A stretch of 64,000 nt of DNA from Candidatus Omnitrophota bacterium. GTDB taxonomy: Bacteria; Omnitrophota; Gorgyraeia; VGKH01. The stretch covers positions 35,890 through 99,889 of the forward strand of contig JBDRFF010000020.1 of assembly GCA_043819095.1 (NCBI GenBank). Direction: 5' to 3'. Each line of letters starts with the position of its first letter. Position 1 is the first letter of the stretch. The translations under genes and the position numbers were made by a program. Positions 1-50,680 of the stretch are shown piece after piece. Below the pieces are notes generated by a model that did not search any database, had not been told where the DNA came from, and saw only the letters and a program-made list of their open reading frames with translations.

Positions 1-503
1 TATTTCTCTCCTGAAATCCTCTTACGATATCAACAGCAGTTTTGTTATCCGGGGCTGCACCTAATATAGCTGCGAAACCAGGAAGTCTTCCGTCGACTAA
101 CTGAATGCCTAAAGAACGAATTATCGTATCGGTGAAAAATCCATTACAATCTACTTGAGGCTCTTCATTATAAAGATAACGCAGAACCATAATAATCTCT
201 TCACAAAGTAACGTAGCAATCCCCGCATCTAATACTCCTCCTAAATAAGGCAACCAGATCTTATCCGATGGAACCTCAGGTAAAAGCGACCTAGCATGTT
301 CTAATATTTCTTTTGCGTCCTTTAAAGTCTTCGCCTCTTTTGCCATTAAAGCATTTGCCATCGGCAAATAAAAAGCTGTGCTTGGAAATTCAATTTTCTG
401 CGACTCGCTTTTCTCTTCAATAGCTTTATTGAGTTTGGATTCCGATTCCTTAAAAATCTGATGAGCGCCTCTAATTACAGCCTGAGCGACTATCTTAGAC
501 ATA
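1..503 (-). CDS. acsB: Acetyl-CoA synthase (CODH/ACS catalytic subunit AcsB), N-terminal fragment; gene continues beyond window start
   Basis: Manual reverse-strand translation from ATG at 503-501 gives MSKIVAQAVIRGAHQIF...TAFYLPMANALMAKEAKTLKDAKEIL...LPGFAAILGAAPDNKTAVDIVRGFQE. This aligns by eye with the Moorella-type AcsB N-terminus (TAYYLPV..., IPGEAIILGRAKDSKALAKIV). Not in the ORF track because it is truncated by the window edge. The start overlaps the stop of the upstream gene by 8 nt. Confidence 0.65.
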
Positions 504-1793
504 AGTCCTTTCTTCCTCTCTTACTAAATCTCTGATATCAGCGAAACTGAAGTTTTCATTTAATAATCTATCTTTAATATTGGTTATATCTATTTTTTCT
601 TTGATTAATTTTAAGAATACTCCGGACTGATTGATATTCCCAACCAAAACTGCTCCAACTAATCGATTCCCGGCTATAACTAATTTTTTATAAATCTCTA
701 AACCGGGAAAAGATTTTGATAAGATTTCTTGGTTTTCGCCTTCTTTATAAATCCCCATTGAGACAACCGGCAAATCAAAAAACTCAACTGAATTTAATCC
801 TAAAGAACCTTCGTATTTTATATTTTCACCAGCGATATTGCTTCCGGCGATTTTGCCTTGTTCAACTGCGTGCGGCCAAAGAGCATTGACTATTGGCTTA
901 TTTAATGTGATATCAAAAGTCTCGCAGACATCGCCTGCAGCGTAGATATTTGGAATATTTGTCTTCATGTTTTCATCAACACAAATTCCATCACTGATTT
1001 TTATCTCGGTCTCAGAAATTATATCAGTGTTGGGTTGAACACCTTTTGCTACAACCACAATCTGACAAGCAATAACTTTATTATTATCTAAACGCACTGC
1101 TTTAAGATCACCATTTCCGACTATTTCTGTGATGCTTCTTCCTGTCAGTATCTCAATTCCATTGTCTGATAATCTCTTCTGCACAAGTTGGGCTGCTTGC
1201 TTATCAACCACTTGAGATAAAACATAAGGCGATCTTATAATAACTTTTACATCCTTGCCTCTTTTTCTCAGACCATATGCAGCTTTTAATCCGATAAGTC
1301 CGCCTCCGGAAACACAGGCAGTATCTGCCATCGTCACTAATTGTAAAATGTCTTTAGTATCTTTTATAGTTCTAAAACCGAATACTCCTTTTTTCTTGAT
1401 TCCTTTTAATTCGGGAAATTTCGGGCTTGCGCCATTAGCCAAAAGAAGCGCATCATAATCAAGTTGTAATTTAGACGATTTTGATTTCTTATCTTCTTCT
1501 TTGTTCTCTGAAACATCTTCAGCTACAACACGATTTTTCTTAGGATCGACCCTCACTACCTTTGTGCCTAATTTAAGCTCTGCGTTCTGCTCTTTGAAGA
1601 ATTCATTGCTGCGATAAACTAACTTTTCTTCCGTCACTTTTCCGGCCAGAAAATCAGAGATAACGCATCGACAATAAGAAGGATAATCCTCATCGGATAA
1701 AACGATAATCTTTGATTCTTTATCCTTTTTTCTTATTGCCTCAACAGCGGCAACGCCTGCTGCTGAATCTCCGATAATGATTACTTGTTTCAT
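495..1793 (-). CDS. FAD/NAD(P)-binding pyridine nucleotide-disulfide family oxidoreductase (CooF-associated FNOR-like)
   Basis: N-terminal GxGxxG dinucleotide fold (IIGDSAAGVAAVEAI), a second Rossmann motif (VSGGGLIGLKAAYGL) and a GD motif (AAGDVCE) typical of NADH oxidase/CoA-disulfide reductase-like enzymes. Sits between cooF and acsB. Confidence 0.7.
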   Translation of the reverse strand: MKQVIIIGDSAAGVAAVEAIRKKDKESKIIVLSDEDYPSYCRCVISDFLAGKVTEEKLVYRSNEFFKEQNAELKLGTKVVRVDPKKNRVVAEDVSENKEEDKKSKSSKLQLDYDALLLANGASPKFPELKGIKKKGVFGFRTIKDTKDILQLVTMADTACVSGGGLIGLKAAYGLRKRGKDVKVIIRSPYVLSQVVDKQAAQLVQKRLSDNGIEILTGRSITEIVGNGDLKAVRLDNNKVIACQIVVVAKGVQPNTDIISETEIKISDGICVDENMKTNIPNIYAAGDVCETFDITLNKPIVNALWPHAVEQGKIAGSNIAGENIKYEGSLGLNSVEFFDLPVVSMGIYKEGENQEILSKSFPGLEIYKKLVIAGNRLVGAVLVGNINQSGVFLKLIKEKIDITNIKDRLLNENFSFADIRDLVREEERTYV

Positions 1794-1795
1794 AA

Positions 1796-1992
1796 TTATT
1801 GCTTTCTTTAATGAGCGCTTGACTTATGGAACAAAAGTGACATAAGTCAAATGCGCGAATTAACCCCCACTGTTTCGTTTTGGTTCGCTTTGCTTCACCA
1901 AAAGCGAAACAAAACGGTGGGGGCAAATTCAGCCAGACGACTTAGCTTCCTCCGACGATACGTCGGAATCGTTAAGTCGTGGCTTCATTTCC
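1796..1992. repeat. Modular nested-palindrome intergenic repeat element, copy A (H1 variant 2; H2 = cccccactgtttcg...cgaaacaaaacggtggggg; H3 degenerate)
   Basis: Shares left end ttaatgagcgc, H1 hairpin gcgcttgacttatgg/cataagtcaaatgcgc, linker gaattaacccc, linker ggggcaaattcagcca, H3 cgacttagcttcctccgacg-ata-cgtcggaatcgttaagtcg and right end gtggcttcattt with copies B-E. The cooF stop (1929) lies inside it. Confidence 0.7.
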
Positions 1993-2426
1993 TCTTCTTC
2001 TACCCAAAGAACTGCTTTAACCGGGCAAGCCTTTACACACTGCGGCTCGCCGATATCAGTACACAAATCACATCTAACAGGAATTTTTACTTTTTTATTC
2101 GGCCTGATAGCACCATAAGGACAAACCATTACGCACATCCAGCAACCTACGCATTTATCTTCATCGTATAAAATCTGACCGGTTTTCTCATCTTTTGATA
2201 TTGCCGCAGCCATACAAGCAGCTACACATTTGGGATCCTTACAATGCCTGCAGCTCATAGGATAATTTTTATCTTTAGAAAAGGTAATCTTTATGCGTGG
2301 TAAAGATTTATCCTTCTCCTTGATCATCTTTTCCAATTCTTTGGAGACCGAATGCGAAATAGCACAGGCAAGTTCACAGGATTTACAACCTAAACATTTC
2401 TCGACGTCAAAATAAATCTTTTTCAT
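1929..2426 (-). CDS. cooF: CooF-type 4Fe-4S ferredoxin (CO dehydrogenase iron-sulfur electron-transfer subunit)
   Basis: Multiple CxxCxxCxxxCP cluster motifs (CLGCKSCELAC, CVGCWMCVMVCPYGA, CDLC...CVKACP). Lies immediately downstream of cooS. Confidence 0.8.
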   Translation of the reverse strand: MKKIYFDVEKCLGCKSCELACAISHSVSKELEKMIKEKDKSLPRIKITFSKDKNYPMSCRHCKDPKCVAACMAAAISKDEKTGQILYDEDKCVGCWMCVMVCPYGAIRPNKKVKIPVRCDLCTDIGEPQCVKACPVKAVLWVEEEEMKPRLNDSDVSSEEAKSSG

Positions 2427-2445
2427 ATTATTTTGGTAATTTTTT

Positions 2446-2541
2446 AACGCAGATTATCGCAAATCTAACGCAGATACACACAGATTTTATCCTTATGGAC
2501 AATCTGCGACCATCTGCGTGCAATCCGCGAATATCTGCGTT
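2446..2541. promoter_or_regulatory. ~95-bp imperfect palindrome made of eight 8-mer (AACGCAGAT / ATCTGCGT-like) repeats at ~11-bp spacing, between cooS stop and cooF start
   Basis: Left arm: aacgcagat (2446), tcgcaaatc (2457), aacgcagat (2467), cacagattt (2479). Right arm in inverse orientation: aatctgcga (2501), catctgcgt (2511), aatccgcga (2522), atctgcgtt (2533). Symmetry centre near 2493. Confidence 0.5.
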
Positions 2542-2557
2542 CAAAAACTATTCCCAT

Positions 2558-4489
2558 TTATTTTTTTCCTGTTTTAACTGCCTCCTGATACATCATTGGC
2601 TGCAGTTTAAGCGCCTCACGCTTTTTATTTATATGATCAATCATCATTTTTGCTGCTTTTAAAGGATCTGCCTCAAATGCAAATTTTCCTCCGCAAATAG
2701 ACTCCATATCCTCAGTCAAAAATTTAGTTACATTTTGACTCCCTAAGACAGGCATTGCCCCGCCTAAAACTGTAAACACGCCTGAAGAAACAAAATAAAA
2801 TCCGATGCTTATTGCCTTTTCCGACATCCACTCTGGCGCTGCTCCGGCTGCGGGAAGATCTGAAATATCTTCACCAAGACCCCCTTCTTTCAAAACTTCA
2901 GTTGCTGCGATTAGAATTCGACTATTATCTACGCAAGAGCCCATATGTAATACAGGCGGAATACCTACTGCTTCGCAAATTTCTTTCAAACCTTTGCCTG
3001 CTGCTTCAAATGCTGCTTCTGGCTGTAACAATCCAGCCTTACCGCAAGCGATAGCAGAGCATCCTGTCGATAAAACAATCACATCATTTTTAAGTAATTC
3101 TTTGACCAAAGTCAGATGGCCAAAATCGTGAGTAATTTTAGGATTATTGCAACCCACAACTCCTGCGATACCACGAATCCTTCCGTTAATGATAGCTTCA
3201 TTTAAAGGCTTAAAGGTGTTAAGATATTTCCCACCTAAAATGCGCGAAACTATTTCAGTTGAAATCCCTGCAATTAAATCTTTCTTTTCTTTGGGAATAA
3301 AAACTCTGTTTTTATCTCTTTTCTTATAATTCTCGATTGCCTTTTTCACAATCGATTTCATTATATTTATGGCGTCGTGTTCATCAAAGTGGATAAATGT
3401 CACGCCGGGAAACTTTGCCTTTTCCGACGTGGTAATAATCTCAGTATGAAAACATTTGGCAACATCAATCAAACCCGGCATAATACACTGGATATCGACC
3501 ATCATCATTTCTACCGCGCCTGTGGCGATGGCTAATTCCTGTTGCAGGAAATTTCCTGCTAAAGGCACTTCATGACGCATCAGGACTTCATTTGCCGTAC
3601 AGCACATTCCGGCTAAATTTATTCCAGCTGCGCCTGCTTCTTTTGCCAATTTTATCATCTCCGGGTCTTTGACCACCTGGGCTGCTGCCTCAGGAAGAAG
3701 CGCTTCGTGGCCGTGAACAATAATATTAACCTGATCCTCTTTCAATACACCCAGATTAACCGTCCCTCGTATTGGTTCGGGAGTACGCAAAAGGATATCC
3801 TGGGCTTCGGTTGCAATCATCGAACCGCCCCAGCCATCCCCAAGACTTGTCCTCATTCCGTGCAAAATTATACTCTTATATTCATTATCCACTCCAATAT
3901 GAACCCTATGCATGGCTTCAACAATTTCTCTATCAACACCGCGAGGAATAATGCCTGCCTTTTTCCAAACCGCGATTCTCTTCTTAGGAGCGCGGACGAT
4001 AAATTTAAGCGGGCCTTCCTGCGCGCCAAAATCCTCTAAAAACTTATCGCCTAAATCCGCAGCAATATCTTCTTTGGAACGACCTTCAATTTTGATACCA
4101 TACATCTTGGCCATTTCCTTTAATTTATCTTCGTCTTGAATTTTATAATCGTGGATTTTGCCTTTGCCAACTAAATGAAGCGCGTGCGCAACGCCTCTTC
4201 CGTGGTCTGAATGCGCAGCAGCTCCACAGGCAATATGGCGAAGCAAATTTCGCGCGACAATTGTGTCTGCATCGGCGCCACAAACTCCACACTGTGTGCC
4301 TTCGCCAAATGGATCAATCCTACAAGGCCCAAGATAACAATTCGTACAACAAATCCCTAACTGCCCAAAACCGCACTGCGGTTGCATTTCTTCATGTCTG
4401 TCCCAAATTGTCTTAAAAGATTCGCCTTGAATCTTTTTTAAAACTTCTTGGGTTGCTGGATCAACCGATCGCTTAGTTACATCACTCAT
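2558..4489 (-). CDS. cooS: Anaerobic Ni-dependent carbon monoxide dehydrogenase catalytic subunit (CooS/AcsA)
   Basis: 643 aa. N-terminal CGFGQLGICCTNCYLGPCRI cluster B/D motif and overall CooS-like length. Strong SD (AGGAGG) 8 nt upstream on the minus strand. Confidence 0.9.
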   Translation of the reverse strand: MSDVTKRSVDPATQEVLKKIQGESFKTIWDRHEEMQPQCGFGQLGICCTNCYLGPCRIDPFGEGTQCGVCGADADTIVARNLLRHIACGAAAHSDHGRGVAHALHLVGKGKIHDYKIQDEDKLKEMAKMYGIKIEGRSKEDIAADLGDKFLEDFGAQEGPLKFIVRAPKKRIAVWKKAGIIPRGVDREIVEAMHRVHIGVDNEYKSIILHGMRTSLGDGWGGSMIATEAQDILLRTPEPIRGTVNLGVLKEDQVNIIVHGHEALLPEAAAQVVKDPEMIKLAKEAGAAGINLAGMCCTANEVLMRHEVPLAGNFLQQELAIATGAVEMMMVDIQCIMPGLIDVAKCFHTEIITTSEKAKFPGVTFIHFDEHDAINIMKSIVKKAIENYKKRDKNRVFIPKEKKDLIAGISTEIVSRILGGKYLNTFKPLNEAIINGRIRGIAGVVGCNNPKITHDFGHLTLVKELLKNDVIVLSTGCSAIACGKAGLLQPEAAFEAAGKGLKEICEAVGIPPVLHMGSCVDNSRILIAATEVLKEGGLGEDISDLPAAGAAPEWMSEKAISIGFYFVSSGVFTVLGGAMPVLGSQNVTKFLTEDMESICGGKFAFEADPLKAAKMMIDHINKKREALKLQPMMYQEAVKTGKK

Positions 4490-4668
4490 TAATTATTCCT
4501 CCTTCAATGACGTCATAATTTACGGAGTCCTAAGACGACGTAAATTATACGTCTGAAATGAACCCCACTTCTTGCTTTCGCAAGAAAGCAGCGGGGTAAA
4601 TTCAGCCAAACAACTTATGTTCCTCCGACGGTACGTCGGAGGAACATAAGTTGTGGCTTCATTTAAAG
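4490..4668. repeat. Modular nested-palindrome intergenic repeat element, copy B (most compact; perfect H3 palindrome)
   Basis: ccttcaatgacg left end; H1 gacgtcataatttacg/cgtaaattatacgtc; H2 ccccac..cttgctttcgcaagaaagcag..cgggg; H3 acaacttatgttcctccgacg-gta-cgtcggaggaacataagttgt (21-bp perfect arms); right end gtggcttcattt. Fills the entire metF-cooS gap. Its left end supplies the AGGAGG SD of cooS. Confidence 0.75.
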
Positions 4669-5538
4669 CCCTACAGCGTCTAAAATTAAAGGAACTTGTT
4701 TGTCCCAGCCCAACGGCATAAGGTGTATTCCCTGACACATGGAATTTAATTCCTTAATCAGACGCGCAGCTATCTCAACGCTCTTTTTTGGTCTATCTTC
4801 TTTGGAAACACTTTTCATTTCTTCTATCAAATTATCCGGGACATTTACTCCCGCGACATTTTCATTCATGAATTTTGCCATACCGGCAGATTTTAAAAGC
4901 ACGATTCCGGCCATAATCGGAACTTTAATATGTTTTACTTTATTAATAAAAGTTTCGAACTGTTTTATATCATAAACCGCCTGCGTCTGGAAAAATTCAG
5001 CCCCTGCGGCTACTTTTTGTTCCATTTTCATAATCTGCGGTTCAATAGGATCTGCGCCGGGATTTACCACCGCGCCTTTACAGAATTTCGGCGCCGGGCC
5101 TTGAAGATCATTACCAACCATATCCTTACCTGATTCCAATGTTTTAATAACTTCCAACAGCTGAACGCTTTCTAAATCAAACACAGGCTTTGCGTCGGGA
5201 TGATCTCCTAATGAGACATGATCACCGGTTAAAGCTAAAACATTATCAATTCCTAATGCCGCAGCTGATAATAAATCCGATTGGAGTGCTAAACGATTTC
5301 TATCCCGGCAGGTCATCTGAAATATCGGCTCGAGTCCTTTTTCCTTTAATAGACGACATACTGCCAACGAACCAAGACGCATTACAGAACTCTGCAGATC
5401 AGTTACGTTAATTGCATCAACACGGTCACGAATTAACTCGGCATCTCCTAATAATTCTTTAGTTTCGATACCTTTGGGCGGACCGATTTCAGAAGTTAAT
5501 AAAAATTTTCCTTGTTTTATTTTCTCTTTAAAAGTCAT
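4663..5538 (-). CDS. metF: Methylenetetrahydrofolate reductase (small MetF type)
   Basis: 291 aa. MTHFR fold signatures (LTGDHVSLGDHPDAKPVFDLESVQLL; AGAEFFQTQAVYD). Adjacent to folD. No MetV-like partner seen. Confidence 0.8.
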   Translation of the reverse strand: MTFKEKIKQGKFLLTSEIGPPKGIETKELLGDAELIRDRVDAINVTDLQSSVMRLGSLAVCRLLKEKGLEPIFQMTCRDRNRLALQSDLLSAAALGIDNVLALTGDHVSLGDHPDAKPVFDLESVQLLEVIKTLESGKDMVGNDLQGPAPKFCKGAVVNPGADPIEPQIMKMEQKVAAGAEFFQTQAVYDIKQFETFINKVKHIKVPIMAGIVLLKSAGMAKFMNENVAGVNVPDNLIEEMKSVSKEDRPKKSVEIAARLIKELNSMCQGIHLMPLGWDKQVPLILDAVGL

Positions 5539-6383
5539 TTGGCTTGAATCTTTGTTGCTTCAACTAAATTACGCATTAACATTGTGACGGTTAATGGCCC
5601 TACGCCGCCTGGAACCGGCGTGATATATGATGCACGTTTGGAAGCTTCGTCAAATTCTACGTCTCCCACGATTTTTCCTTCAACGCGATTTATTCCTACA
5701 TCGATTACAATTGCGCCATCCATTATCCATTCGCCCTTAATTAATCCGGCTTTTCCTACGGCTACAACTAAAATCTCGGCTTTGTTTACATGTTCGATTA
5801 ATTTTCCAGCTTCTGAAGTTCCAATATGACAGACTGTTGTGGTTGCAAATTTCTCTAATAATAAAAGGCTTAAAGGTTTCCCTACGATTTCGCTATGCCC
5901 TACGATAACTACTTCTTTTCCGTAAAGATTAACTCCAGTCGCCTCAATCAAAGCCATTGCTGCCGCTGCAGTACAAGGCGCAATTCTTGCTTTACCCATT
6001 AAAACTTTTCCCAGATTTTGCGGATGCATTCCTTCGATATCTTTATCGGGTGAAATAAAACTACTGATTGCCTTATAATCTATCTGCTTTGGAAGCGGCA
6101 TCTGAACGATGATTCCGTTGACATTAACATCATTATTTAATTTCTGAATAAAATCAATTAAGCCTGGCTGATTCGTATCAGCCGGCAATCTTTCTAAACT
6201 ATATTCAATTCCTAAATTGTCTGCTGTCTTTTTCTGTGATTTGCAATAGGCTTCTGCGCCGACATTTTCACCGATGATGATGCTTGCTAAAACCGGCTTT
6301 TTGCCCAAGCTTGAAATTTCTTTCTTTAATGCCTCTTTGATTCCAGAAGCAATAATTTTTCCTTCAAGTAATTTGGCGGCCAT
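5535..6383 (-). CDS. folD: Bifunctional 5,10-methylene-THF dehydrogenase / 5,10-methenyl-THF cyclohydrolase
   Basis: 282 aa; MAAKLLEGKIIASGIKEALK N-terminus; NAD(P) site VVIVGHSEIVGKPL; PVPGGVGPLT C-terminal motif. Confidence 0.9.
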   Translation of the reverse strand: MAAKLLEGKIIASGIKEALKKEISSLGKKPVLASIIIGENVGAEAYCKSQKKTADNLGIEYSLERLPADTNQPGLIDFIQKLNNDVNVNGIIVQMPLPKQIDYKAISSFISPDKDIEGMHPQNLGKVLMGKARIAPCTAAAAMALIEATGVNLYGKEVVIVGHSEIVGKPLSLLLLEKFATTTVCHIGTSEAGKLIEHVNKAEILVVAVGKAGLIKGEWIMDGAIVIDVGINRVEGKIVGDVEFDEASKRASYITPVPGGVGPLTVTMLMRNLVEATKIQAK

Positions 6384-6932
6384 TTATATCCTCCAAGATT
6401 TAAATTGCTGCTTAATTCTTGCGACGAATTTCTTATCTTTTATATACGGAAGATTGATTTTCACGTTTACGATTGCAGATTTGATTGCAGCGCGAAGTAA
6501 GCTGTTTGCGACATGAACATCGCTGATTAAATACTTATTTCCTTTTTTTGCTAACACCGGACAAAGATTCAATGCTTGAAAACTTAATTCGGTAATCTTT
6601 ACGGGAACAATAGTTGCTTCTTTTAAGGATTTTTGATGTAAGGCGAAAGAGATCTTTTTGTTTCGAGCAACCTTATTATAAGTTATAACATCTAAATCAA
6701 CTAATTCAAGCAACTTTTTTCTTATTTTTCCCGATTCTTTTAATGACTTTTTGATATCTTTTTGGAATTTCTTATATTTTGGTTTGCCTATGGTAAAATT
6801 TGCTACCATAGAAAGCAATGCCGCGGCTGTTGCGCCAACAAGCGCTGCAGCTGAACCGCCTCCGGGAGCCGGCTTTCTTGCCGCTAAATCATCAAGATAT
6901 TCCCTTATACTTTTATTAGCATATTTTCTCAT
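6384..6932 (-). CDS. fchA: Cyclodeaminase/cyclohydrolase family protein (methenyl-THF cyclohydrolase FchA-like)
   Basis: 182 aa; N-terminal LDDLAARKPAPGGGSAAALVGATAAALLSMVANFT is the FtcD/FchA cyclodeaminase signature. Sits between fhs and folD. Confidence 0.75.
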   Translation of the reverse strand: MRKYANKSIREYLDDLAARKPAPGGGSAAALVGATAAALLSMVANFTIGKPKYKKFQKDIKKSLKESGKIRKKLLELVDLDVITYNKVARNKKISFALHQKSLKEATIVPVKITELSFQALNLCPVLAKKGNKYLISDVHVANSLLRAAIKSAIVNVKINLPYIKDKKFVARIKQQFKSWRI

Positions 6933-7255
6933 TTTATAAATTCCTCCACGTCTATGCCTCTCTTCTGGACATCATCAACCATTTTCTCCATTCGCTTTCG
7001 TTCTTCTTTGTCTTTTAACAATTTAAGAAATCTTTTTTCCATCTCCGGATTAACCTTCTCTTGTTGTTTGAACATCGACAAAAATAATACAGATAGAAAT
7101 ACTGCGAACAAAACAAGAACTGCGTCGCGAAAAAATTTACTTACTCTTATTCTTAGATGATGAGGATGTGGTTCGGCTTCTTTTTGAGGATGACTTTCGT
7201 CTTTCTTAAGTAAACTCTCCTCTTCTCTCCTAAAATAATCCTCTAATTTGTCCAT
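6929..7255 (-). CDS. Hypothetical small membrane protein (one TM helix, highly charged flanks)
   Basis: 108 aa ORF overlapping fhs (26 nt) and fchA (4 nt). Central hydrophobic segment AVLVLFAVFLSVLFLSMF flanked by K/E-rich regions. No recognisable family. Confidence 0.35.
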   Translation of the reverse strand: MDKLEDYFRREEESLLKKDESHPQKEAEPHPHHLRIRVSKFFRDAVLVLFAVFLSVLFLSMFKQQEKVNPEMEKRFLKLLKDKEERKRMEKMVDDVQKRGIDVEEFIK

Positions 7256-8921
7256 TGTCGTCGATATCTATTTTTTCCCCAGCCGGATGAGTTGGAAGCC
7301 CCGGCATCGTACGCATCTCTCCGCAAAGCACGTAAAGAAAACCAGCTCCCACAGAAGCCTTAATATCCCTTACGGGAAGAATAAAATCTTCAGGCCTGCC
7401 CTTTAGTTTAGGGTCATGTGAAAGTGAAAGATGAGTCTTAGCCATACAGATGGGGAACTTATTATATTTCAATTTTGTATAAAGCCTTACCTTTTCTTCT
7501 GCGCGCACTGAATAGAAAACGCTTTTTGCCCCATATATTTTCTTTGCGATTGTCTCTATCTTATCTTTAATTTTCATAGAATCAGGATAAAGATATTTAA
7601 AATGGCTCTTCTTATTAGCTGCTTTTGTAACGGCTCTGGCTAAATCTGTGCCGCCTTTTGAACCCTTTGCCCAGACTTCGCTTAGCGCAACATCATCGGC
7701 ACCGGCTTGCAAAGCTATTCTTTTTACCAGGTCTATCTCTTTTTTAGTATCTGTTGTAAATTTATTTACAGCCACAACGCAAGGAATCCCGAATTGTTTT
7801 ATATTCTCAATTTGCTTTTCTAAATTTGAGCTGCCTTCTCTTAATGCCTCAAGATTTTCCGATATAAGACCTTTACTCAAAGGCTTGCCGGCAACGACAT
7901 TAAATCTTCCGCTGTGCATCTTTAATGCCCGAATAGTACAAACCAGAACCGCTGCATCGGGTTTAATACCGCTATTTCTACACTTTATATTAAAGAATTT
8001 CTCCGCCCCGCAATCTGCGCCAAAGCCGCTTTCGGTGACAACAAAATCTGCTAATTTTACAGCTATCCTGTCTGCTAAAATAGAACTATTGCCGTGGGCG
8101 ATATTAGCAAACGGCCCTGCATGTACGAATACGGGGGTATTTTCTAACGTCTGAATAAGCGTTGGCTTTATCGCGTCCTTTAATAAAACAGCCATAGCTC
8201 CGGCGACTTTCAAGTCTTCTGCGGTAACTAACTTACCATTTTTTGTCATTGCTACAACTATACGCCCGATCCTTTTCCTTAAATCAGATAAATTCTCAGT
8301 AAGCGCCAATATAGCCATAATTTCACTGGCTACAGATATATCAAATCCTCCCTGACGAGGAATGCCGTCCTGTTTAGAGCCCAGACCAACAGTAATGTAT
8401 CTTAATGACCTGTCGCTCACATCAACTACCCTCTTCCAGAAAATCTTATGCATATCAAAATTAAATTTATGGCGATAGATTGCATTATCCAAGAAAGCTG
8501 CGCAAAGATTATGCGCCAGGCTGACCGCATGAACATCTCCTGTGAAATGGAGATTAAAATCTTCCATTGGGATTACTTGGGAATAACCGCCTCCGGCAGC
8601 TCCGCCCTTTATGCCGAATACCGGACCTAAAGAAGGCTGCCTAATACAGCTGATAGTTTTTTTGCCGATGCGATTAAGAGCCATTGACAACCCTATAGTG
8701 GTGACAGTTTTACCTTCACCAAGAGGCGTAGGTGTAATTGCGGTCACATCTATATATTTTGCATTCTTTTTATTCTTATTCTTTTTGATTAGATCCAAAG
8801 ACACCTTTGCCTTATAGTTGCCGTAAAACTCAAGATCACTATCCTTTATGCCAATCTTCTTGGCAATTTGCTTGATGGGCTTAATCTTTGCGTTTTGAGC
8901 AATTTCTAAATCTGAAAGCAT
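7230..8921 (-). CDS. fhs: Formate--tetrahydrofolate ligase
   Basis: 563 aa; canonical FTHFS N-terminus MLSDLEIAQNAKIKPI and P-loop region PTPLGEGKTVTTIGL. SD GAAGGAGG directly upstream. Confidence 0.9.
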   Translation of the reverse strand: MLSDLEIAQNAKIKPIKQIAKKIGIKDSDLEFYGNYKAKVSLDLIKKNKNKKNAKYIDVTAITPTPLGEGKTVTTIGLSMALNRIGKKTISCIRQPSLGPVFGIKGGAAGGGYSQVIPMEDFNLHFTGDVHAVSLAHNLCAAFLDNAIYRHKFNFDMHKIFWKRVVDVSDRSLRYITVGLGSKQDGIPRQGGFDISVASEIMAILALTENLSDLRKRIGRIVVAMTKNGKLVTAEDLKVAGAMAVLLKDAIKPTLIQTLENTPVFVHAGPFANIAHGNSSILADRIAVKLADFVVTESGFGADCGAEKFFNIKCRNSGIKPDAAVLVCTIRALKMHSGRFNVVAGKPLSKGLISENLEALREGSSNLEKQIENIKQFGIPCVVAVNKFTTDTKKEIDLVKRIALQAGADDVALSEVWAKGSKGGTDLARAVTKAANKKSHFKYLYPDSMKIKDKIETIAKKIYGAKSVFYSVRAEEKVRLYTKLKYNKFPICMAKTHLSLSHDPKLKGRPEDFILPVRDIKASVGAGFLYVLCGEMRTMPGLPTHPAGEKIDIDDNGQIRGLF

Positions 8922-9208
8922 TTGACCTCCTTCAATGACGACATAATTTACGGAGTTTTCAAACGACGTAAATTATTCGTCGAAATTGAACCCCCCACCA
9001 CTTTTAGTAATCAGGCGTTCTTTTATATAAAAACGTTTATCGTCTTTTCAAACCCACCATCTTTAATTCCACAGTTGTTTCTAAAAGTGGTGGGGGGTCA
9101 AATTTCCCTCGACGTTGCTCGGGACTCCTTCGAGGGATCCTGAGCGAAGTCGAAGGGCAGACAAACAATTTATGTCATTGCATTCCATAACTTGTGTCTT
9201 CATTTGAT
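8916..9208. repeat. Modular nested-palindrome intergenic repeat element, copy C (long H2 variant plus extra hairpin module, degenerate 3' end)
   Basis: Left end cctccttcaatgacg (supplies fhs SD). H1 gacgacataatttacgg/cgtaaattattcgtc. H2 17-bp perfect stem ccccccaccacttttag (8991-9007) / ctaaaagtggtgggggg (9081-9097). Extra hairpin ccctcgacg...cgtcgaggg (9106-9136). Ends ...gtgtcttcatttg next to the yraN stop. Confidence 0.7.
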
Positions 9209-33361: not shown

Positions 33362-35140
33362 CTATTTTATTATTTTTTCTAATTCCTCAAACGTGGTTTT
33401 CTCTGTTGCCCCAAAAATTTCTTTGTTACCTAAAAGAAACAAAGGACCATAATAAATCTTTAGTTCCTCGGGCAATTTTATATTGTCTTTTAAAAGATCA
33501 TCAGCTTCCTGGCTTTTAGCACATTTTCTAATCGAATCTATATCCAATCCTAATTTAATAGCGCAATCATCCCACCAAGTGCTTTCGATATTATCTAACC
33601 TACAAAATAAGTAATCCCATAGATTATCAGTATATTTTTGCATTATACAAAGAACTCTCTTATTTTCTTCTATTTCGGCTATACCGCCCGGAGCCCTAAA
33701 TTCAGCCAAGGCCTCATCATAGACAGCAAGAAAATGAATATTGAAATTAAATTTAGCTCCTGGTTCATCCAGTAATTTTTTGGTTATCTCTAAAACATTT
33801 TTTGATCCCTTATTCCTTAAACTTATAAATAAATCCAATCTATCTTTCTCGGCTTTTCTTTCTAGGAAATAAGATACACCGATTACAAACGGATTCACCA
33901 TATAATAATTAGCATCTTTTTTTTCGATGATTTTTGTGTCTAACAAATTTTTAAAATTATTGTGCCTCGTTACTTCTTTACCAAGCAAAAATACAGGAAG
34001 CATGTTAATTTCGAATTTTTTGATTAAATCTTTTGCCTTCTTATCATCGCTATCTAGATGTATCGCAGAAAGTCCTGATATTCGGTCATTAAGTTGTTCT
34101 AGCGCTAAATCGATATTGCAGGTCTTACAATCTTTGGGGCTTATTACAGTTAAAGGCAACTTTAAATCTTCGCCGTAAACGCAAGTTGCATCTTTCTCTC
34201 CGGGCGATTCACAAATACCTCTTTGTTTACCTTTATAACATTCTTTATCCTGAAAACAAAGCGGCAAGAAATCTTTAATCTCAGTGGCATCAGGGATATT
34301 TTTATCCATGGGAAAATTCTTAGGTGCAATCCCTTTTATTTTACCGTCTTCCACGTCAAGCTCCAGGACTCCTAAGGTTCTTGTCCATGAATAAGGCTTT
34401 AAATATATTGCTGAGCCAATCTTATCCCCGGTTTTATACTTACTACTCATTACGCTTGAAATAATAATATCGATTCCATCTATCTTCTCTAATAATTGCT
34501 CATCCATTCCTAGGCCTAACTGACTTAATATTATCGTGATATCAACCTTTTTACCTTTCAGCTTTTTAATGTTATCCTTAACGACCTTTATTGTTTGCGC
34601 AATATCTTGTTTAATGCCTAAACCAGAATCTATCGGCGAGACTGCGACAATCCCAACTTTTGTCTTACCGAATTCTTTGATAACAAAAGGCGATAATCCG
34701 GGTAATTCTAGATTGCAAGACAAAAAATCAATATCGATTTTCTTGATAACATCCGATAAAAACTCTTTCCCGAAATTAAACTCTCCCTTGCCAACACCAA
34801 CGGCATCATAACCCATAATCTCCATTGCTTTAAAATATATCTCTGTTCGCTTCTTATCTAATCCTGGCTCTTGGCTATCGGGATCTTGTTCTCCTGAAGC
34901 AAAATAATCTCCGCTATCAAGTAATAAGAGATTTTGATACTGCTTACGCAGCTCTTTTATCTTTGTTGCCCGACGAGCTATTCCACCGTTTGGATTCTCG
35001 GGACATCTACAAGGATATAAGCTGGCGTGCGAATCACCTGAATAAACAATCGCTATCTTTTCTGCATACAAAAATTCATTAACAAATAAAACCGCAAAAC
35101 AACTCAATAAAAATATTAAAATTAATCTCTTAAGCATCAT
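33362..35140 (-). CDS. Secreted multidomain protein: degenerate 5'-nucleotidase/metallophosphoesterase-like N-domain plus DsbA-like thioredoxin-fold domain with CKTC motif
   Basis: 592 aa; signal peptide (LILIFLLSCFAVLFVNEFLYA). NPNGGIARRATKIKELR...LLLDSGDYF resembles the UshA/5'-nucleotidase N-terminal fold. TVISPKDCKTCN...MLPVFLLGKEV resembles a thioredoxin-fold CxxC segment. A C-terminal thioredoxin-like region has no Cys pair. Confidence 0.45.
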   Translation of the reverse strand: MMLKRLILIFLLSCFAVLFVNEFLYAEKIAIVYSGDSHASLYPCRCPENPNGGIARRATKIKELRKQYQNLLLLDSGDYFASGEQDPDSQEPGLDKKRTEIYFKAMEIMGYDAVGVGKGEFNFGKEFLSDVIKKIDIDFLSCNLELPGLSPFVIKEFGKTKVGIVAVSPIDSGLGIKQDIAQTIKVVKDNIKKLKGKKVDITIILSQLGLGMDEQLLEKIDGIDIIISSVMSSKYKTGDKIGSAIYLKPYSWTRTLGVLELDVEDGKIKGIAPKNFPMDKNIPDATEIKDFLPLCFQDKECYKGKQRGICESPGEKDATCVYGEDLKLPLTVISPKDCKTCNIDLALEQLNDRISGLSAIHLDSDDKKAKDLIKKFEINMLPVFLLGKEVTRHNNFKNLLDTKIIEKKDANYYMVNPFVIGVSYFLERKAEKDRLDLFISLRNKGSKNVLEITKKLLDEPGAKFNFNIHFLAVYDEALAEFRAPGGIAEIEENKRVLCIMQKYTDNLWDYLFCRLDNIESTWWDDCAIKLGLDIDSIRKCAKSQEADDLLKDNIKLPEELKIYYGPLFLLGNKEIFGATEKTTFEELEKIIK

Positions 35141-40804: not shown

Positions 40805-41068
40805 ATTAATCCTTTAATGAGCGCTTGGCTTATGGAATCCGCCAAAGTTCTGTGGCGGATGACATAAGTCAACTGCGCGAATTGAACCCCCCACCACTTT
40901 TAGCAAGGGCCTTCATTTTATGTAGGACGTTTATCCTTCTTTTCAAACCCACCAAATTTAATTCCACCGTTATTTCTAAAAGTGGTGGGGGGTAAGTTCG
41001 AACATATAACTTATGTTCCTCCGACGCCTCGTCGGAGTCCATAAGTTATGTCCTCACTTACATTCTGA
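40805..41068. repeat. Modular nested-palindrome intergenic repeat element, copy E (H1 variant 2 with nested ccgcca/tggcgg hairpin; long H2 variant as in copy C)
   Basis: ttaatgagcgc left end; H1 gcgcttggcttatgg...cataagtcaactgcgc; H2 stem ccccccaccacttttag (40887-40903) / ctaaaagtggtgggggg (40976-40992) with internal cttttcaaacccacca..tttaattccac shared with copy C; H3 ataacttatgttcctccgacg-cct-cgtcggagtccataagttat. The lptB stop lies at its right end and the tig start at its left end. Confidence 0.7.
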
Positions 41069-47647: not shown

Positions 47648-49698
47648 AACTTAGAGATTTCGTCAACAGCTTCTAGGACATCTTCAACACTTATGGATTT
47701 CAGGCAAATGAACTCCTTTTTGCAGTTATGGGCGAGGCACTCAATGCATCCAACATCCTTATGTAGAAATATGTCTTTTTCTCCTAAAGGCCCCCAGCGT
47801 AAAGGACTTAAGCCCTTTTGGTTTCTTCCAAAAATGGAAATAACCGGAGTGCCAACAGCCGTCGAAATATGCACTGGCCCGGAATCGTTTGAAATAAAAA
47901 GGCAGCATCTTTTTAGAATGCTTGCAAGTTTACTAATTGTGGTTTCTCCTGATAAATCGATTACAGGATATTCGATTTTTTCGATAAGTTTTTCAGCGAT
48001 CTTCTGATCTTTTGGGCCAGAAATAATAATAATTTTAAATCTGTACTCTTCTATTAATCTATTGGCAAGATCGGAAAAATGTTCCTGCGGCCAAATTTTT
48101 GAAGGACAACTTGCGCCTGGATGAATTGCTACTAGATTAGGACTATTAAGGGCGTTATTCTTCTTTAGAATCCTATCTACCCAATCTTCGGATTCTTTTT
48201 TTATCGGCATAAAAAGTGTTTTATCTTGCGGCTCTATACCCAAGGCTCGGATGACATCGAGTGAATATCCCATCTCATGCTTTTCGCCTAAATACTTTTT
48301 GTCATCAAGTTTTTTAGTTAAGAAAAATCCCATCTTTCTGTTATACCCGATTCTCTCCGGAATCCCCGCAAAAAAAGAAATTAGATTTACCCTATTTGTG
48401 GGATGCAGGATTATTGCTAAATCGAATCGTTCCTTTCTTAATTCATTAGCAAATTTTAGCGACGATAAAATGCTTTTATGTTTTCCATATTTATCGTAAA
48501 TTATAAGCTCATCTACGAATGGATTTCCTTCAATAATTTCTTTAGCGTAGGGTCTTACCATCACAGCTAAAAATGAATTTGGAAAAAAATCCTTCACTGC
48601 CTTAATCACGGGAGTTGATAACAATACGTCTCCGATTCTATCTGTTCGAATCACTAAAATACGTTTATAGACCGAAAATTGCGACGCGATCGGTCTTTTC
48701 TCTTGGAGATAAATCTCAAAAAACTTCCCCGCTTGTTTTATAATGACGTTTTCCTCAAACAAATTCATGCATTCATGATTGTATCTGCAACTTGATTCCT
48801 CGCAAGGAGAACAATCTAATTCCTTCCTGACTAGCAAACTCTTACTATTCCAGGGCCCATATTTCTTTGGGTTGGTCGGACCAAATATCGCCAATGTTGG
48901 GACTTCCAGATAGCTAGCTAAATGCATTACAGCGCTATCATTTGAAATAACCAATTTTGCTTTTTTAAGCAGGCCTGCCAGTTGTTTAAGATTAGTCTGA
49001 CCGCATAAATTAACTGAATCATTTTTCATTAAATTTGAGACTTTCTCGGCAATTTCAGCATCATTTTTATCACCGACCATTACAATCTTTACGGAATAAG
49101 TCTCGGTTAGATAATCGCAAACTTTGGCAAAACCGTTCTCCGGATACCTCTTCCAACGGCTTGCCGCCCCAGGACTAACAATTACAATATTTTTCTTTCC
49201 CGATAATTTATTTTTAGATAAAATCTGTTCTATTTTGTCTTTATCCGATTCGTTGATGTGGATTTCGGAAAGACTATAAAATCTGGAAATTAGCGGATAA
49301 GTAGACTTTAGCTTATAGAGATACCGATATTTCATGTGTTCGATTGTCTCAGGAATTTTTTTAAATGGCGAAGTCTTGTGTTCAGCATTTAACAATACAG
49401 ATAATCCGCTATGGCGCAGGTCTACTATGAGATCAAATTTCTGCTTTTTTAGATAAATAAGAAAACCGATCTTACTTTTTATAGCGATACTCTTATCGTA
49501 GATAATTGTGTTTATTTTCGCGTCGTCAGCTAAAAGTTCGGCTGCCTTGGGACCGACGATTACGTTTAGACGAGCCTCTGGAAAGTTAGCCTTCAAAGTA
49601 TCAATCACCGGTAAGGTAAGCACAACATCACCGATATTGCTTAGGTTTATAACTAATATATTTTTAATTTCTGAATTGTTTAACTTTTTGGAAAACAT
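47644..49698 (-). CDS. Tandem double glycosyltransferase family 9 (two LPS heptosyltransferase-like domains in one polypeptide)
   Basis: 684 aa; two copies of the GT9 N-terminal signature (ILVINLSNIGDVVLTLPVIDTLKANFP and ILVIRTDRIGDVLLSTPVIKAVKDFFP). Each is followed by a GT-B C-terminal half with GPxxAS...D..GPxH motifs. Confidence 0.75.
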   Translation of the reverse strand: MFSKKLNNSEIKNILVINLSNIGDVVLTLPVIDTLKANFPEARLNVIVGPKAAELLADDAKINTIIYDKSIAIKSKIGFLIYLKKQKFDLIVDLRHSGLSVLLNAEHKTSPFKKIPETIEHMKYRYLYKLKSTYPLISRFYSLSEIHINESDKDKIEQILSKNKLSGKKNIVIVSPGAASRWKRYPENGFAKVCDYLTETYSVKIVMVGDKNDAEIAEKVSNLMKNDSVNLCGQTNLKQLAGLLKKAKLVISNDSAVMHLASYLEVPTLAIFGPTNPKKYGPWNSKSLLVRKELDCSPCEESSCRYNHECMNLFEENVIIKQAGKFFEIYLQEKRPIASQFSVYKRILVIRTDRIGDVLLSTPVIKAVKDFFPNSFLAVMVRPYAKEIIEGNPFVDELIIYDKYGKHKSILSSLKFANELRKERFDLAIILHPTNRVNLISFFAGIPERIGYNRKMGFFLTKKLDDKKYLGEKHEMGYSLDVIRALGIEPQDKTLFMPIKKESEDWVDRILKKNNALNSPNLVAIHPGASCPSKIWPQEHFSDLANRLIEEYRFKIIIISGPKDQKIAEKLIEKIEYPVIDLSGETTISKLASILKRCCLFISNDSGPVHISTAVGTPVISIFGRNQKGLSPLRWGPLGEKDIFLHKDVGCIECLAHNCKKEFICLKSISVEDVLEAVDEISKL

Positions 49699-50677
49699 CT
49701 TCTACGCTAATTTCCTCCATACAGCGGTAATCATCACAACTTGCTTTATAACATGGTATTTCACAACCAACATCCGTGCATATTATTTCGATTCTGCCTT
49801 TTCCGATCGGTCCTGTTATCTCCGGAGAAGTTGGCCCAAATAAAGCTATTAGATTAGTGCCAACGGCTGCAGCGATATGCATCGGACCCGAATCAGCAGA
49901 AATTACTAAATCCGATTCTTTCATCAAGACCCCAAGCTGCTTTAAGGTGGTTTTTCCTGCTAAAATTATTGGTTTTGTTTTCATCAGACTTGCTATCTGG
50001 TTGGCTAGAACTATATCTTTATCTGCACCTGAAATTATTATCTTTGCTTTGAGTTCTTGATTAAGTCTGTCTGCGAGTTTTGCAAAATTTTCTTTCGGCC
50101 AGCGTTTCGGCTCCCAGTTCCCACCGGGATTGATCACAGTAATAAAATCACCTTCTTTGAAACCTTGTTTAACTAGGATCTCTTTGGAAAATTTCCTATC
50201 ATCCTCCGAGATAAAGAAGTCATAATATTTTCCATCGGATTCGATGCCATAAGCCTGGATAATGTTTAAGAAATTTTCCAATCGATGAATATCAGCTTTG
50301 GGAGATGGAACTTTTTTAGTAAGTAGAAACCCTCTTTTGCGGGTATAATAACCGGCGCGTTCTGGAATGCCGGCTAAAAAGGTTATCAGCGTCCTAGTAA
50401 AAGATCGATGGAATAGAAAAACAACATCAAATTTTTTCTTTTTTAATTCTTTGATAAAATCTATTTTCGCAATTAAGCTCTTGTGAATTTTCTTCTCGTC
50501 AAAAACAATTATCTCATCTAAATAAGGATTATCTTTTAAGATTTCAACGCAGCGGCCAACCACCATGCAAGCAATATAGCCTTCTGGGTTTGCCTTTTTT
50601 ATCGCTCTTATTGCTGCCGTCGATAAAAGCACATCGCCAAGCCAATTAACATTTACAATCAAAATCCTTTTTTTCAT
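49664..50677 (-). CDS. Glycosyltransferase family 9 (LPS heptosyltransferase, WaaF/WaaC-like)
   Basis: 337 aa; RILIVNVNWLGDVLLSTAAIRAIKKANP GT9 signature; C-terminal DSGPMHIAAAVG. Confidence 0.8.
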   Translation of the reverse strand: MKKRILIVNVNWLGDVLLSTAAIRAIKKANPEGYIACMVVGRCVEILKDNPYLDEIIVFDEKKIHKSLIAKIDFIKELKKKKFDVVFLFHRSFTRTLITFLAGIPERAGYYTRKRGFLLTKKVPSPKADIHRLENFLNIIQAYGIESDGKYYDFFISEDDRKFSKEILVKQGFKEGDFITVINPGGNWEPKRWPKENFAKLADRLNQELKAKIIISGADKDIVLANQIASLMKTKPIILAGKTTLKQLGVLMKESDLVISADSGPMHIAAAVGTNLIALFGPTSPEITGPIGKGRIEIICTDVGCEIPCYKASCDDYRCMEEISVEDVFQKVKQFRN

Positions 50678-50680
50678 ATT

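Follow-up and report, generated by a model that had tools for sequence, protein, structure and literature searches.

The DNA analysed here is a stretch of 64,000 nucleotides (nt) from a Candidatus Omnitrophota bacterium (contig JBDRFF010000020.1, positions 35,890 to 99,889), referred to below as the window. It begins with a cluster of Wood-Ljungdahl pathway (WLP) genes that raises the question of how a carbon monoxide dehydrogenase/acetyl-CoA synthase (CODH/ACS) exchanges electrons, as two electron-transfer genes stand between the gene for the Ni-CODH catalytic subunit (cooS/acsA) and that for acetyl-CoA synthase (acsB): cooF, for a polyferredoxin, and a gene for an FAD/NAD(P)-dependent oxidoreductase (FNOR). 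The first-pass annotation, made from the sequence alone, had described FNOR as inserted between cooF and acsB, and the CooF-FNOR pair as wedged between the CODH and ACS subunits. Comparison with related loci showed instead that cooF-FNOR-acsB is a conserved three-gene unit, often translationally coupled and also present in contigs labelled with several other phyla. We consider the chances slightly better than even that CooF and FNOR are a dedicated electron wire connecting CODH/ACS with NAD(P)(H), so that the three genes form one functional unit.

The identity of the genes was examined by profile searches against Pfam and NCBIfam/TIGRFAM, with Pfam run on all minus-strand open reading frames (ORFs) of at least 100 amino acids (aa) in the window. 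All nine reading frames of the cluster are present on the minus strand, with coordinates essentially as first noted (Table 1), and every gene identity proposed earlier, including those of CODH and AcsB, was upheld. The 643-aa CooS scored above the cut-off (478 bits) of the curated equivalog model TIGR01702, and the possibility, set out beforehand, that it is a hydroxylamine reductase/hybrid cluster protein was discarded, with just 37 bits for TIGR01703 against a cut-off of 360.8. In alignments with two solved CODHs, 6t7j (759 bits) and that of the Clostridium autoethanogenum CODH/ACS (6ytt, 657 bits), all the ligand motifs of the B-, C-, and D-clusters are present (CGFGQLGICCTNCYLGPC...C, HGHE, MCCT, QCIMP, GCNNP, TGCS, and GSCVD). 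FNOR and CooS are 100% identical to proteins of a Candidatus Omnitrophota metagenome-assembled genome (MAG), in agreement with the earlier assignment to a candidate-phylum anaerobe, and their next-best homologs are overwhelmingly from Omnitrophota.

The 16 cysteines of CooF form four 4Fe-4S motifs. In NCBIfam, CooF is best matched by the N-terminus of PadI, and among solved structures it matches HycB4 (7qv7) and AorA (8c0z_C). FNOR is a flavoprotein with two dinucleotide-binding sites, for FAD and NAD(P)H, composed of Pyr_redox_2, Pyr_redox, and a C-terminal Rubredoxin_C domain, and it is best matched over its full length by PadH in NCBIfam (275 bits). Both GxGxxG motifs (G8/G13 and G163–G168) and Cys43 are invariant in an alignment of 19 homologs. 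The protein also matches AorC (8c0z_E) over the full length, with an identity of ~26%, and its AlphaFold model (predicted local distance difference test, pLDDT, of 80.6) superposes on AorC with template modelling scores (TM-scores) of 0.77/0.79. In the fold search, CoA-persulfide reductases and NADH oxidases scored about level with AorC, all of them top-ranked with E values of ~1e-36. After the second Rossmann strand lies the segment I186-R187-S188, in which Ser188 is invariant in the alignment. This segment resembles A178R/M179S of the LbNOX-derived NADPH oxidase, a hint, of low confidence, that FNOR may prefer NADPH.

The acsB gene is cut off by the edge of the window. Its coding part, first given as 1–503, is in fact 2–502, and the ATG (502–500) overlaps the FNOR stop by 8 nt (ATGTCTAA). 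The encoded fragment covers positions 1–161 of the 710-position AcsB model (NF040764/NF007078) and scores above the cut-off (32.2 bits) of PF18537, the CODH-docking N-terminal domain. In the relative L001, AcsB is full length (726 aa), with the A-cluster motifs CxxC...C...C and CGC intact, which is indirect evidence for the AcsB of the window.

To compare the gene order, the alignment of 19 FNOR homologs was scanned against one genome per GTDB species, which gave 80 loci; three more from exact-protein look-ups brought the total to 83. For each locus, 12–21 kb around FNOR was retrieved, and genes were mapped by tblastn. The start of acsB is found at most 1 kb downstream of FNOR in 80 of the 83 loci; among those with enough sequence, only L068 and L069 deviate, with cooF-FNOR-cooS and no adjoining acsB. 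Wherever 500 nt or more is available upstream of FNOR (75 loci), cooF is found there, and in 60 loci cooS is directly upstream of cooF. The identical 8-nt FNOR/acsB overlap occurs in 39 of the 74 measurable loci, across FNOR identities of ~50–76%, and the gap between these two genes is at most 60 nt in 63 of the 74. Of 79 loci, 36 also show an overlap of cooF with FNOR. The trio spans ~70 Omnitrophota species representatives and is also found in contigs labelled Nitrospirota (L064), Endomicrobia (L070), Thermotogae (L071), Acetothermia (L074, L077), and Fraserbacteria (L079). It is kept when cooS is displaced, as in L077 (6 kb downstream) and L052 (ahead of metF), and also where cooS is absent from the 12–21 kb around FNOR (L038, L042, L044, L064, L071, and L074).

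An Omnitrophota single-cell genome (JBHPFV010000036.1, locus L089) has no FNOR between cooF and acsB, and other genes are found there (3614–6685). The order in this locus is metF, cooS, cooF, a NuoE-like gene, a NuoF-like gene (Complex1_51K, NADH_4Fe-4S), a gene for a Fer2_4/Fer4 protein, acsB, and acsC, followed by further genes. This is a non-orthologous displacement of FNOR by another module of the NADH-dehydrogenase type, and one that might be electron-bifurcating. Because an NADH module fills the FNOR slot in L089, and because the overlap with acsB is conserved, we read CooF-FNOR as the wire of CODH/ACS, the displacement being the strongest new argument for a connection to NAD(P)H. No description of the trio's independence from the position of cooS, or of its replacement by a NuoE/NuoF-type module, was found in the literature searched.

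Along such a wire, electrons would move in either direction between NAD(P)H and the FAD of FNOR, the four [4Fe-4S] clusters of CooF, the D- and B-clusters, and the C-cluster of CooS, from where CO would move on to the A-cluster of AcsB. This proposed FNOR-CooF-CooS chain would link the carbonyl branch to the pool of pyridine nucleotides, in place of free ferredoxin or in addition to it. Run reductively, the system would convert CO2 into enzyme-bound CO and then acetyl-CoA, an electron sink for a fermenter; run oxidatively, the oxidation of acetyl-CoA or CO would yield NAD(P)H. The intact cofactor motifs, the conserved order and overlap, and the homology to AorA/AorC and PadI/PadH support the wire, and we infer the formation of a complex, the direction of electron flow, and the nucleotide preference.

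In the Aor and Pad enzymes, a polyferredoxin and a flavoprotein of the FNOR kind couple a catalytic site of very low potential to NAD+. AorABC, the tungsten aldehyde oxidoreductase of Aromatoleum aromaticum (8C0Z), and PadEFGHI, the NADH-dependent phenylglyoxylate dehydrogenase, resemble the system of the window in having a CooF-like polyferredoxin (AorA, PadI N-terminus) together with an FNOR-like flavoprotein (AorC, PadH). Their catalytic partner, however, is a tungsten or 2-oxoacid-type enzyme and not Ni-CODH/ACS, for which a complex of this kind is a prediction. Also comparable are the stand-alone CooS-CooF-FNOR clusters, of which that of CODH-IV in Carboxydothermus hydrogenoformans is an example. 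These have the same three families in the same order, including a small COG0437-like four-cluster CooF and an FNOR with Pyr_redox_2 and Rubredoxin_C, and the presumed chemistry is the same, with CO/CO2 coupled to NAD(P)(H). Unlike in those clusters, FNOR in the window is followed by an overlapping acsB, the unit is inside an fhs-fchA-folD-metF operon, and genes for CooA, RcoM, or rubrerythrin do not accompany it.

Further stand-alone examples come from Geobacter sulfurreducens, Clostridium ljungdahlii, and C. autoethanogenum, and clusters of this type are regarded as presumed CO:NAD(P)+ units (PMC6344411, PMC8776680). Surveys of the genomic context of CODH score "WLP" and "FNOR" as separate categories; for annotation, the arrangement described here means that the two contexts of Ni-CODH are not mutually exclusive classes. 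The WLP with CooS/F in Omnitrophota has already been published (PMC10066038), and a figure legend of PMC7325909 has "nox1 (NADH oxidase)" among the abbreviations for Wood-Ljungdahl and CODH/ACS gene clusters, with no discussion of it. In the literature searched, we found no explicit description of a cooS-cooF-FNOR-acsB operon or of an overlapping cooF-FNOR-acsB unit. Within its phylum, the cluster as such is nothing unusual; what yields a specific, testable hypothesis on the redox partner of CODH/ACS in uncultured anaerobes is the comparative pattern.

Several points weigh against an NAD(P)(H) wire. With a potential of about −320 mV, NAD(P)H is a poor reductant for the CO2/CO couple at −520 mV; CO2 reduction driven by NAD(P)H is ~200 mV uphill under standard conditions and feasible only if ACS holds tunnel-bound CO at trace levels, the oxidation of CO or acetyl-CoA with NAD(P)+ being downhill. 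In NADH oxidases, peroxidases, and CoA-disulfide reductases, the equivalent of FNOR Cys43 is redox-active, and since the fold search also ranks NADH oxidase/CoA-persulfide reductase enzymes level with AorC, FNOR might act on peroxide, disulfides, or O2. As of 2019, no FNOR of the CODH-cluster type had been characterised (PMC6344411), and no biochemical study of one was found in the later literature retrieved. Because the loci were selected by FNOR similarity, the linkage frequencies given above hold within the FNOR clade alone. Finally, where the trio has no adjoining cooS, the partner of CooF-FNOR could be AcsB or MetF rather than CODH.

The properties of Cys43 are also the starting point for a role in protection or repair, in which FNOR-CooF would use electrons from NAD(P)H or CO to reduce O2, peroxide, persulfides, or oxidised Ni-Fe-S clusters, shielding or reactivating CODH/ACS and carrying none of its catalytic flux. 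Such a role would suit a residue that is invariant at the redox-active position of NADH oxidase (Nox), NADH peroxidase (Npx), and CoA-disulfide reductase (CoADR), and the presence of CoA-persulfide reductases and NADH oxidases at the top of the fold search alongside AorC. Moreover, the cooS-cooF-FNOR cluster of C. ljungdahlii is oxygen-induced (PMC6344411), and a function in oxidative stress has been hypothesised for FNOR/CooF-associated CODHs (PMC13240472, citing Wu et al. 2005). An accessory of this kind, however, is not expected to be swapped for a NuoE/NuoF-type NADH dehydrogenase module, as in L089. Over its full length, FNOR is built like the ferredoxin-partnered flavoproteins PadH and AorC, including the partner-binding Rubredoxin_C domain, and neither in the window nor in those related loci that were annotated is the trio accompanied by rubrerythrin, peroxidase, or regulator genes. 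We hold protection to be an unlikely function.

Another destination for the electrons is MetF, to which CooF-FNOR would pass them from NAD(P)H in the clade devoid of MetV, alone or besides supplying CODH, in a manner comparable to MetV-RnfC2 of Acetobacterium woodii. Acetogen-type MetF generally requires an Fe-S or flavin partner, and the window and its clade have metF and no MetV, Hdr, or Mvh. Furthermore, metF abuts cooF-FNOR-acsB with no cooS between them in L038, L042, L044, and L059, and in L038 the metF match ends exactly where the cooF match starts. Nevertheless, the invariant neighbour of FNOR is acsB and not metF, also in phyla without metF nearby; the coupling by overlap is likewise with acsB; and MetV-bearing deeper Omnitrophota (L065, L080) keep cooF-FNOR. 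Input to MetF is therefore improbable in our estimation. We give still less credit to simple co-location, which is near the framing of the first-pass annotation: a stand-alone CooS-CooF-FNOR unit for CO scavenging would have come to lie beside acsB through operon compaction, with no coupling to ACS. Omnitrophota genomes are indeed small and compact (PMC10066038), the genes throughout the 64 kb run in one direction and are separated by very short spacers, and L068 and L069 have cooF-FNOR-cooS without an adjoining acsB. Yet the 8-nt FNOR/acsB overlap is retained across FNOR identities of ~50–76%, the trio recurs in contigs of differently labelled phyla even with cooS moved, no second cooS is present in the window to serve ACS, and AcsB has a domain for docking to CODH.

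The electron wire, in our judgement the best account of the locus, can be extended into a wider proposal, possible but doubtful. CooS, CooF, FNOR, and AcsB would constitute a single NAD(P)H-linked CODH/ACS complex making or cleaving acetyl-CoA by way of pyridine nucleotides rather than free ferredoxin, with CooF-FNOR perhaps also feeding MetF in the MetV-less clade. This would be the ancestral and widespread form in Omnitrophota and several uncultured phyla, and the NuoE/NuoF variant of L089 would possibly be a bifurcating alternative.

In model acetogens, ferredoxin is the accepted redox partner of CODH/ACS. Bioenergetic models of the WLP assume an exchange between CODH/ACS and ferredoxin, and the need for reduced ferredoxin forces the use of bifurcating hydrogenases, Rnf, or Ech. 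A CODH/ACS hard-wired to NAD(P)(H), for which the support is comparative only, would change this picture. The predicted energy yield, reversibility, and ecological role (an electron sink for a fermenter, or the oxidation of acetate/CO) would, if the wire exists, need revision for Omnitrophota, Acetothermia, and further uncultured anaerobes, groups that abound in groundwater and sediments.

Classical acs operons are represented by acsA-acsB-acsC-acsD-acsE of Moorella thermoacetica and by the clusters of Acetobacterium woodii and Clostridium autoethanogenum. The window resembles them in its CooS with the full ligand motifs, in the docking domain of AcsB, and in the adjacent fhs, fchA, folD, and metF, and deeper Omnitrophota also continue with acsC-RACo-cooC-acsD-acsE. 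It differs from them in that two electron-transfer genes part acsA from acsB, in that acsCDE, RACo, and cooC are not adjacent in its clade, and in having neither MetV nor a formate dehydrogenase. The WLP genes of the window, fhs, fchA, folD, metF, cooS, and acsB, are thus fewer than the full bacterial set. No fdh, acsC, acsD, acsE, RACo, or cooC was found by Pfam among the minus-strand ORFs of the 64 kb, and tblastn with the AcsC, AcsD, AcsE, RACo, MetV-like, and Mvh-like proteins of relatives returned nothing in the window.

It had been anticipated that acsCDE, cooC, and corrinoid-protein genes would be met just past position 1, but relatives show a tetratricopeptide repeat (TPR) protein gene and polA there instead. 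In the closest relative, L004 (FNOR 80% and CooS 93% identical), acsB is followed by these two genes, as it is in every other window-type locus with enough sequence, and for this reason acsCDE just beyond position 1 is unlikely. The usual order in the window's clade is tgt-trmD-rplS-rnhB-UPF0102-fhs-fchA-folD-metF-(cooC)-cooS-cooF-FNOR-acsB-TPR-polA-coaE-rho-rpmE-prfA; since this order recurs, the cluster is an old resident of a conserved housekeeping block. Deeper Omnitrophota (L065, L073, L075, L076, L080, and L084–L088), on the other hand, have one contiguous block, (folD-metF)-cooS-cooF-FNOR-acsB-acsC-RACo-cooC-acsD-acsE. All six AcsC homologs inspected lie in such integrated clusters, directly after acsB, and among these six none placed acsCDE in a genome with the window-type arrangement.

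According to PMC10066038 and its supplementary note, lineages of Velamenicoccia and Gorgyraia have the methyl branch without formate dehydrogenase and encode the AcsB-E complex, with or without CooS/F, and QZM4-1-77, QZM4-1-127, and UBA12090 are among the lineages with the most complete pathway. Three MAGs sharing these isolate names (L009, L018, and L061) carry window-type clusters. On this basis, the cluster is probably split, with acsC, acsD, acsE, RACo, and cooC elsewhere in the genome and not beside acsB. As a separate observation, L038, L042, L044, and L059 may match the "AcsA/CooS-less" genomes mentioned in PMC10066038.

Concerning the methyl branch, folD and metF overlap by 4 nt. The closest NCBIfam match of MetF is the methylenetetrahydrofolate reductase (MTHFR) half of a bifunctional homocysteine S-methyltransferase/MTHFR (262.7 bits), and the protein is well under the cut-offs of the models for NAD(P)H-dependent MetF, for example the E. 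coli-type NF006950 (30 bits vs 382). The methylene-tetrahydrofolate (THF) reductases MetFV-RnfC2 of A. woodii and MetFV-HdrABC-MvhD of Moorella are comparable systems: the window MetF is likewise of the short type, and some Omnitrophota relatives have MetV and a gene like that for the NiFe-hydrogenase small subunit beside metF. Unlike these systems, the window has no MetV (PF12225), RnfC2, Hdr, or Mvh gene detectable in its 64 kb by Pfam on the minus-strand ORFs or by tblastn with MetV- and Mvh-like proteins, and the earlier remark that MetF is without a MetV or Hdr/Mvh partner is borne out within these limits. MetV (PF12225) was found only in the deeper relatives L065 and L080, and in L053 tblastn gave a MetV-like match. 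Within or close to the folD-metF interval, L065 (1672–3278) and L080 (1496–2158, 4120–4956, and 5071–5859) encode MetV and the NiFe small-subunit-like protein, which hints at a methylene-THF reductase of the Mvh/MetV type in these two loci, absent from the window's clade. The 208-aa product of the folD-metF intergene in SM23_72-type loci was considered as a MetV and rejected, having no Pfam match; this gene is absent from the window.

Table 1. Genes and intergenic spacers of the Wood-Ljungdahl cluster (positions of the 64,000-nt window)
Feature	Position	Strand	Length	Match or content
fhs	7230–8921	−		PF01268, 867 bits; formate-THF ligase; first gene of the cluster
108-aa ORF	6929–7255	−	108 aa	One predicted transmembrane helix (residues ~44–62); no family match
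fchA	6384–6932	−		PF04961, 179 bits; NF045657, 152 bits; methenyl-THF cyclohydrolase
folD	5535–6383	−		FolD models; methylene-THF dehydrogenase/cyclohydrolase
metF	4663–5538	−	291 aa	PF02219, 147 bits; methylene-THF reductase
cooS/acsA	2558–4489	−	643 aa	TIGR01702, 693.6 bits; Ni-CODH catalytic subunit
cooF	1929–2426	−	165 aa	Fer4_11, 65.8 bits; polyferredoxin; 131 nt downstream of cooS
FNOR	495–1793	−	432 aa	Pyr_redox_2, 199 bits; Rubredoxin_C, 55 bits
acsB (first 167 codons)	2–502	−		PF18537, 83.7 bits; cut off by the window edge
UPF0102-fhs spacer	8922–9208		287 nt	Four stacked stem-loops; leader module P (8926–8994) directly before the fhs ATG
metF-cooS spacer	4490–4662		173 nt	20-bp perfect hairpin (4610–4654); G/C-clamped hairpin (~4563–4596); module P (4498–4566)
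cooS-cooF spacer	2427–2557		131 nt	One long imperfect palindrome of GCAGAT/ATCTGC units
cooF-FNOR spacer	1794–1928		135 nt	G/C-clamped hairpin (~1863–1924); module Q (1806–1868)

Stem-loop repeats had been reported at three junctions of the cluster. They are present at junctions, as stated, and the number of these is four (8922–9208, 4490–4662, 2427–2557, and 1794–1968). The "8-mer palindrome" described between cooS and cooF is in reality a palindrome of ~95–110 nt, with a folding energy of −60.2 kcal/mol and a z-score against shuffled sequences of −11.6. The z-scores of the main hairpins range from −3.6 to −11.6, including −11.3 and −5.5 in the metF-cooS spacer and −7.2 in the cooF-FNOR spacer, and two shorter sub-segments gave −2.3 and −1.8. 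The same junctions are just 1–30 nt long in some relatives. The 20-bp perfect hairpin is found after the stops of metF, UPF0102, and lptB and overlaps the 3' end of cooF, and the G/C-clamped hairpin comes next. A repeat hairpin takes in the stop codon of cooF and the 13 codons before it (1929–1968). CooF is 165 aa long in the window vs 151–157 aa in the relatives examined, and it seems that a repeat insertion has changed its C-terminal sequence.

Modules P and Q end in a Shine-Dalgarno-like tail 5–14 nt before start codons, P preceding cooS and fhs, and Q preceding FNOR and tig, which suggests a role in 5' leaders rather than a purely 3' position. In the metF-cooS spacer, module P ends in GAAGGAGG before the cooS ATG, at the place where relatives of the L001 group carry cooC; the module Q upstream of FNOR ends 12 nt before its ATG. 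Copies of module Q occur in the window (1806–1868 and 40812–40890), in L004 (6299–6381), and in five metagenome contigs (L090–L094). The base of the stem is conserved (GCGCA..TTGACTTATG / CCATAAGYCAAGCGC), the inner loop varies, and the tail is Shine-Dalgarno-like. In seven of the eight copies, the module lies 9–14 nt before a start codon, the L004 copy being outside that count. The repeats had been thought to punctuate the cluster, but modules also precede tig at 40.8 kb and unrelated genes elsewhere: module Q stands before acsB in L004 and before FabH-, MgtC-, pilin-, and HU/IHF-like genes in the five metagenome contigs. From this dispersed and variable placement, it follows that the modules are not specific to the WLP.

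Repetitive extragenic palindromic sequences and bacterial interspersed mosaic elements (REP/BIME) are the intergenic palindromic mosaic repeats of proteobacteria. The repeats of the window are similar to them in being short and very stable palindromes with a reshuffled order, intergenic in co-directional operons and dispersed among related genomes; they differ in that their sequences are unrelated to REP and in that modules P and Q always end near a start codon. They belong to a dispersed intergenic class that is REP/BIME-like or like miniature inverted-repeat transposable elements (MITEs). Searches of the 64 kb with Rfam at gathering thresholds and with ARAGORN revealed no structured RNA or tRNA, and the repeats had no Rfam match. 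A function of the repeats as intrinsic terminators or sigma-70 promoters found no support: no U-tailed terminator-like site was found on the minus (coding) strand at the repeat hairpins, and −35/−10 promoter-like hits were at chance (29 vs 25.1 ± 4.7 expected). That they act in processing or stabilising mRNA may reasonably be guessed.

In the window, fhs and fchA are 297 nt apart, a gap that relatives do not have, and the 108-aa ORF fills it. The ORF shares 26 nt with the 3' end of fhs and, at its stop, 4 nt with the start of fchA (ATGA), and its GC pattern by codon position is coding-like. There was no match to a known family and none by tblastn in the 83 related loci, and the ORF is best treated as a lineage-specific, putative and still unverified gene only. 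The rest of the window is housekeeping, with every function-assigned ORF of at least 100 aa on the minus strand, including rplS, trmD, tgt, queA, ruvB, infB, nusA, dxr, ispG, purA, serA, clpP, tig, the lpt/kds/lpx lipopolysaccharide (LPS) genes, topA, dprA, aroK, and aroC. GC skew is negative in every 2-kb bin, with a cumulative value of −4.72. The one-strand genes and the uniformly negative GC skew fit a single replichore with an extreme gene-strand bias.

Some of the related loci have features of their own. A cooC-cooS pair occupies the cooS slot in L001, L005, and L048, which are the nearest to the window by FNOR (68–76% identity), metF, and folD. Their CooS is 59% identical to that of the window and 74–83% identical to those of other cooC-bearing loci (L023, L027, and L066); CooS of more distant, cooC-free loci is 63–67% identical to the window's. 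The mosaic cooC-cooS segment is found in L001, L005, L023, L027, L048, L054, L057, and L066, and these identities suggest a cassette replacement in the cooS slot beside an unchanged FNOR-acsB. Between cooF and FNOR, a 365-aa AAA_26 and DRTGG protein is encoded in L036 (8805–9902), L041, L043, L050, L051, and L063, the domains having been assigned by Pfam on the L036 copy only, and its gene is also a few genes downstream of acsE in the integrated clusters L085–L089; by this recurrence, the protein is a predicted conserved accessory of the cluster. In L083 (6036–6953), a shortened FNOR-like paralog (305 aa, Pyr_redox_2 only) is encoded between metF and cooS, besides the full FNOR. The acsB genes of L072, L074, L075, L084, and L087 have 1,100–1,275 codons. 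For L084 and L087, an intein in acetyl-CoA synthase is indicated by the intein and LAGLIDADG homing-endonuclease domains of the C-terminal half; for L072, L074, and L075, it is presumed from ORF length only.

Two further regions of the window stand apart from the cluster. At 49664–53872 there is a run of glycosyltransferase (GT) genes, one of them for a fused GT4-GT9 protein of 698 aa, and a short motif recurs here at a spacing of 1,056 nt (repeat family D1), a sign of paralogous domains arranged in tandem in the LPS core region. At 33362–35140, a 592-aa protein is encoded whose sole match is a weak, C-terminal DSBA-like one, and the neighbouring gene encodes a DUF1573 protein.

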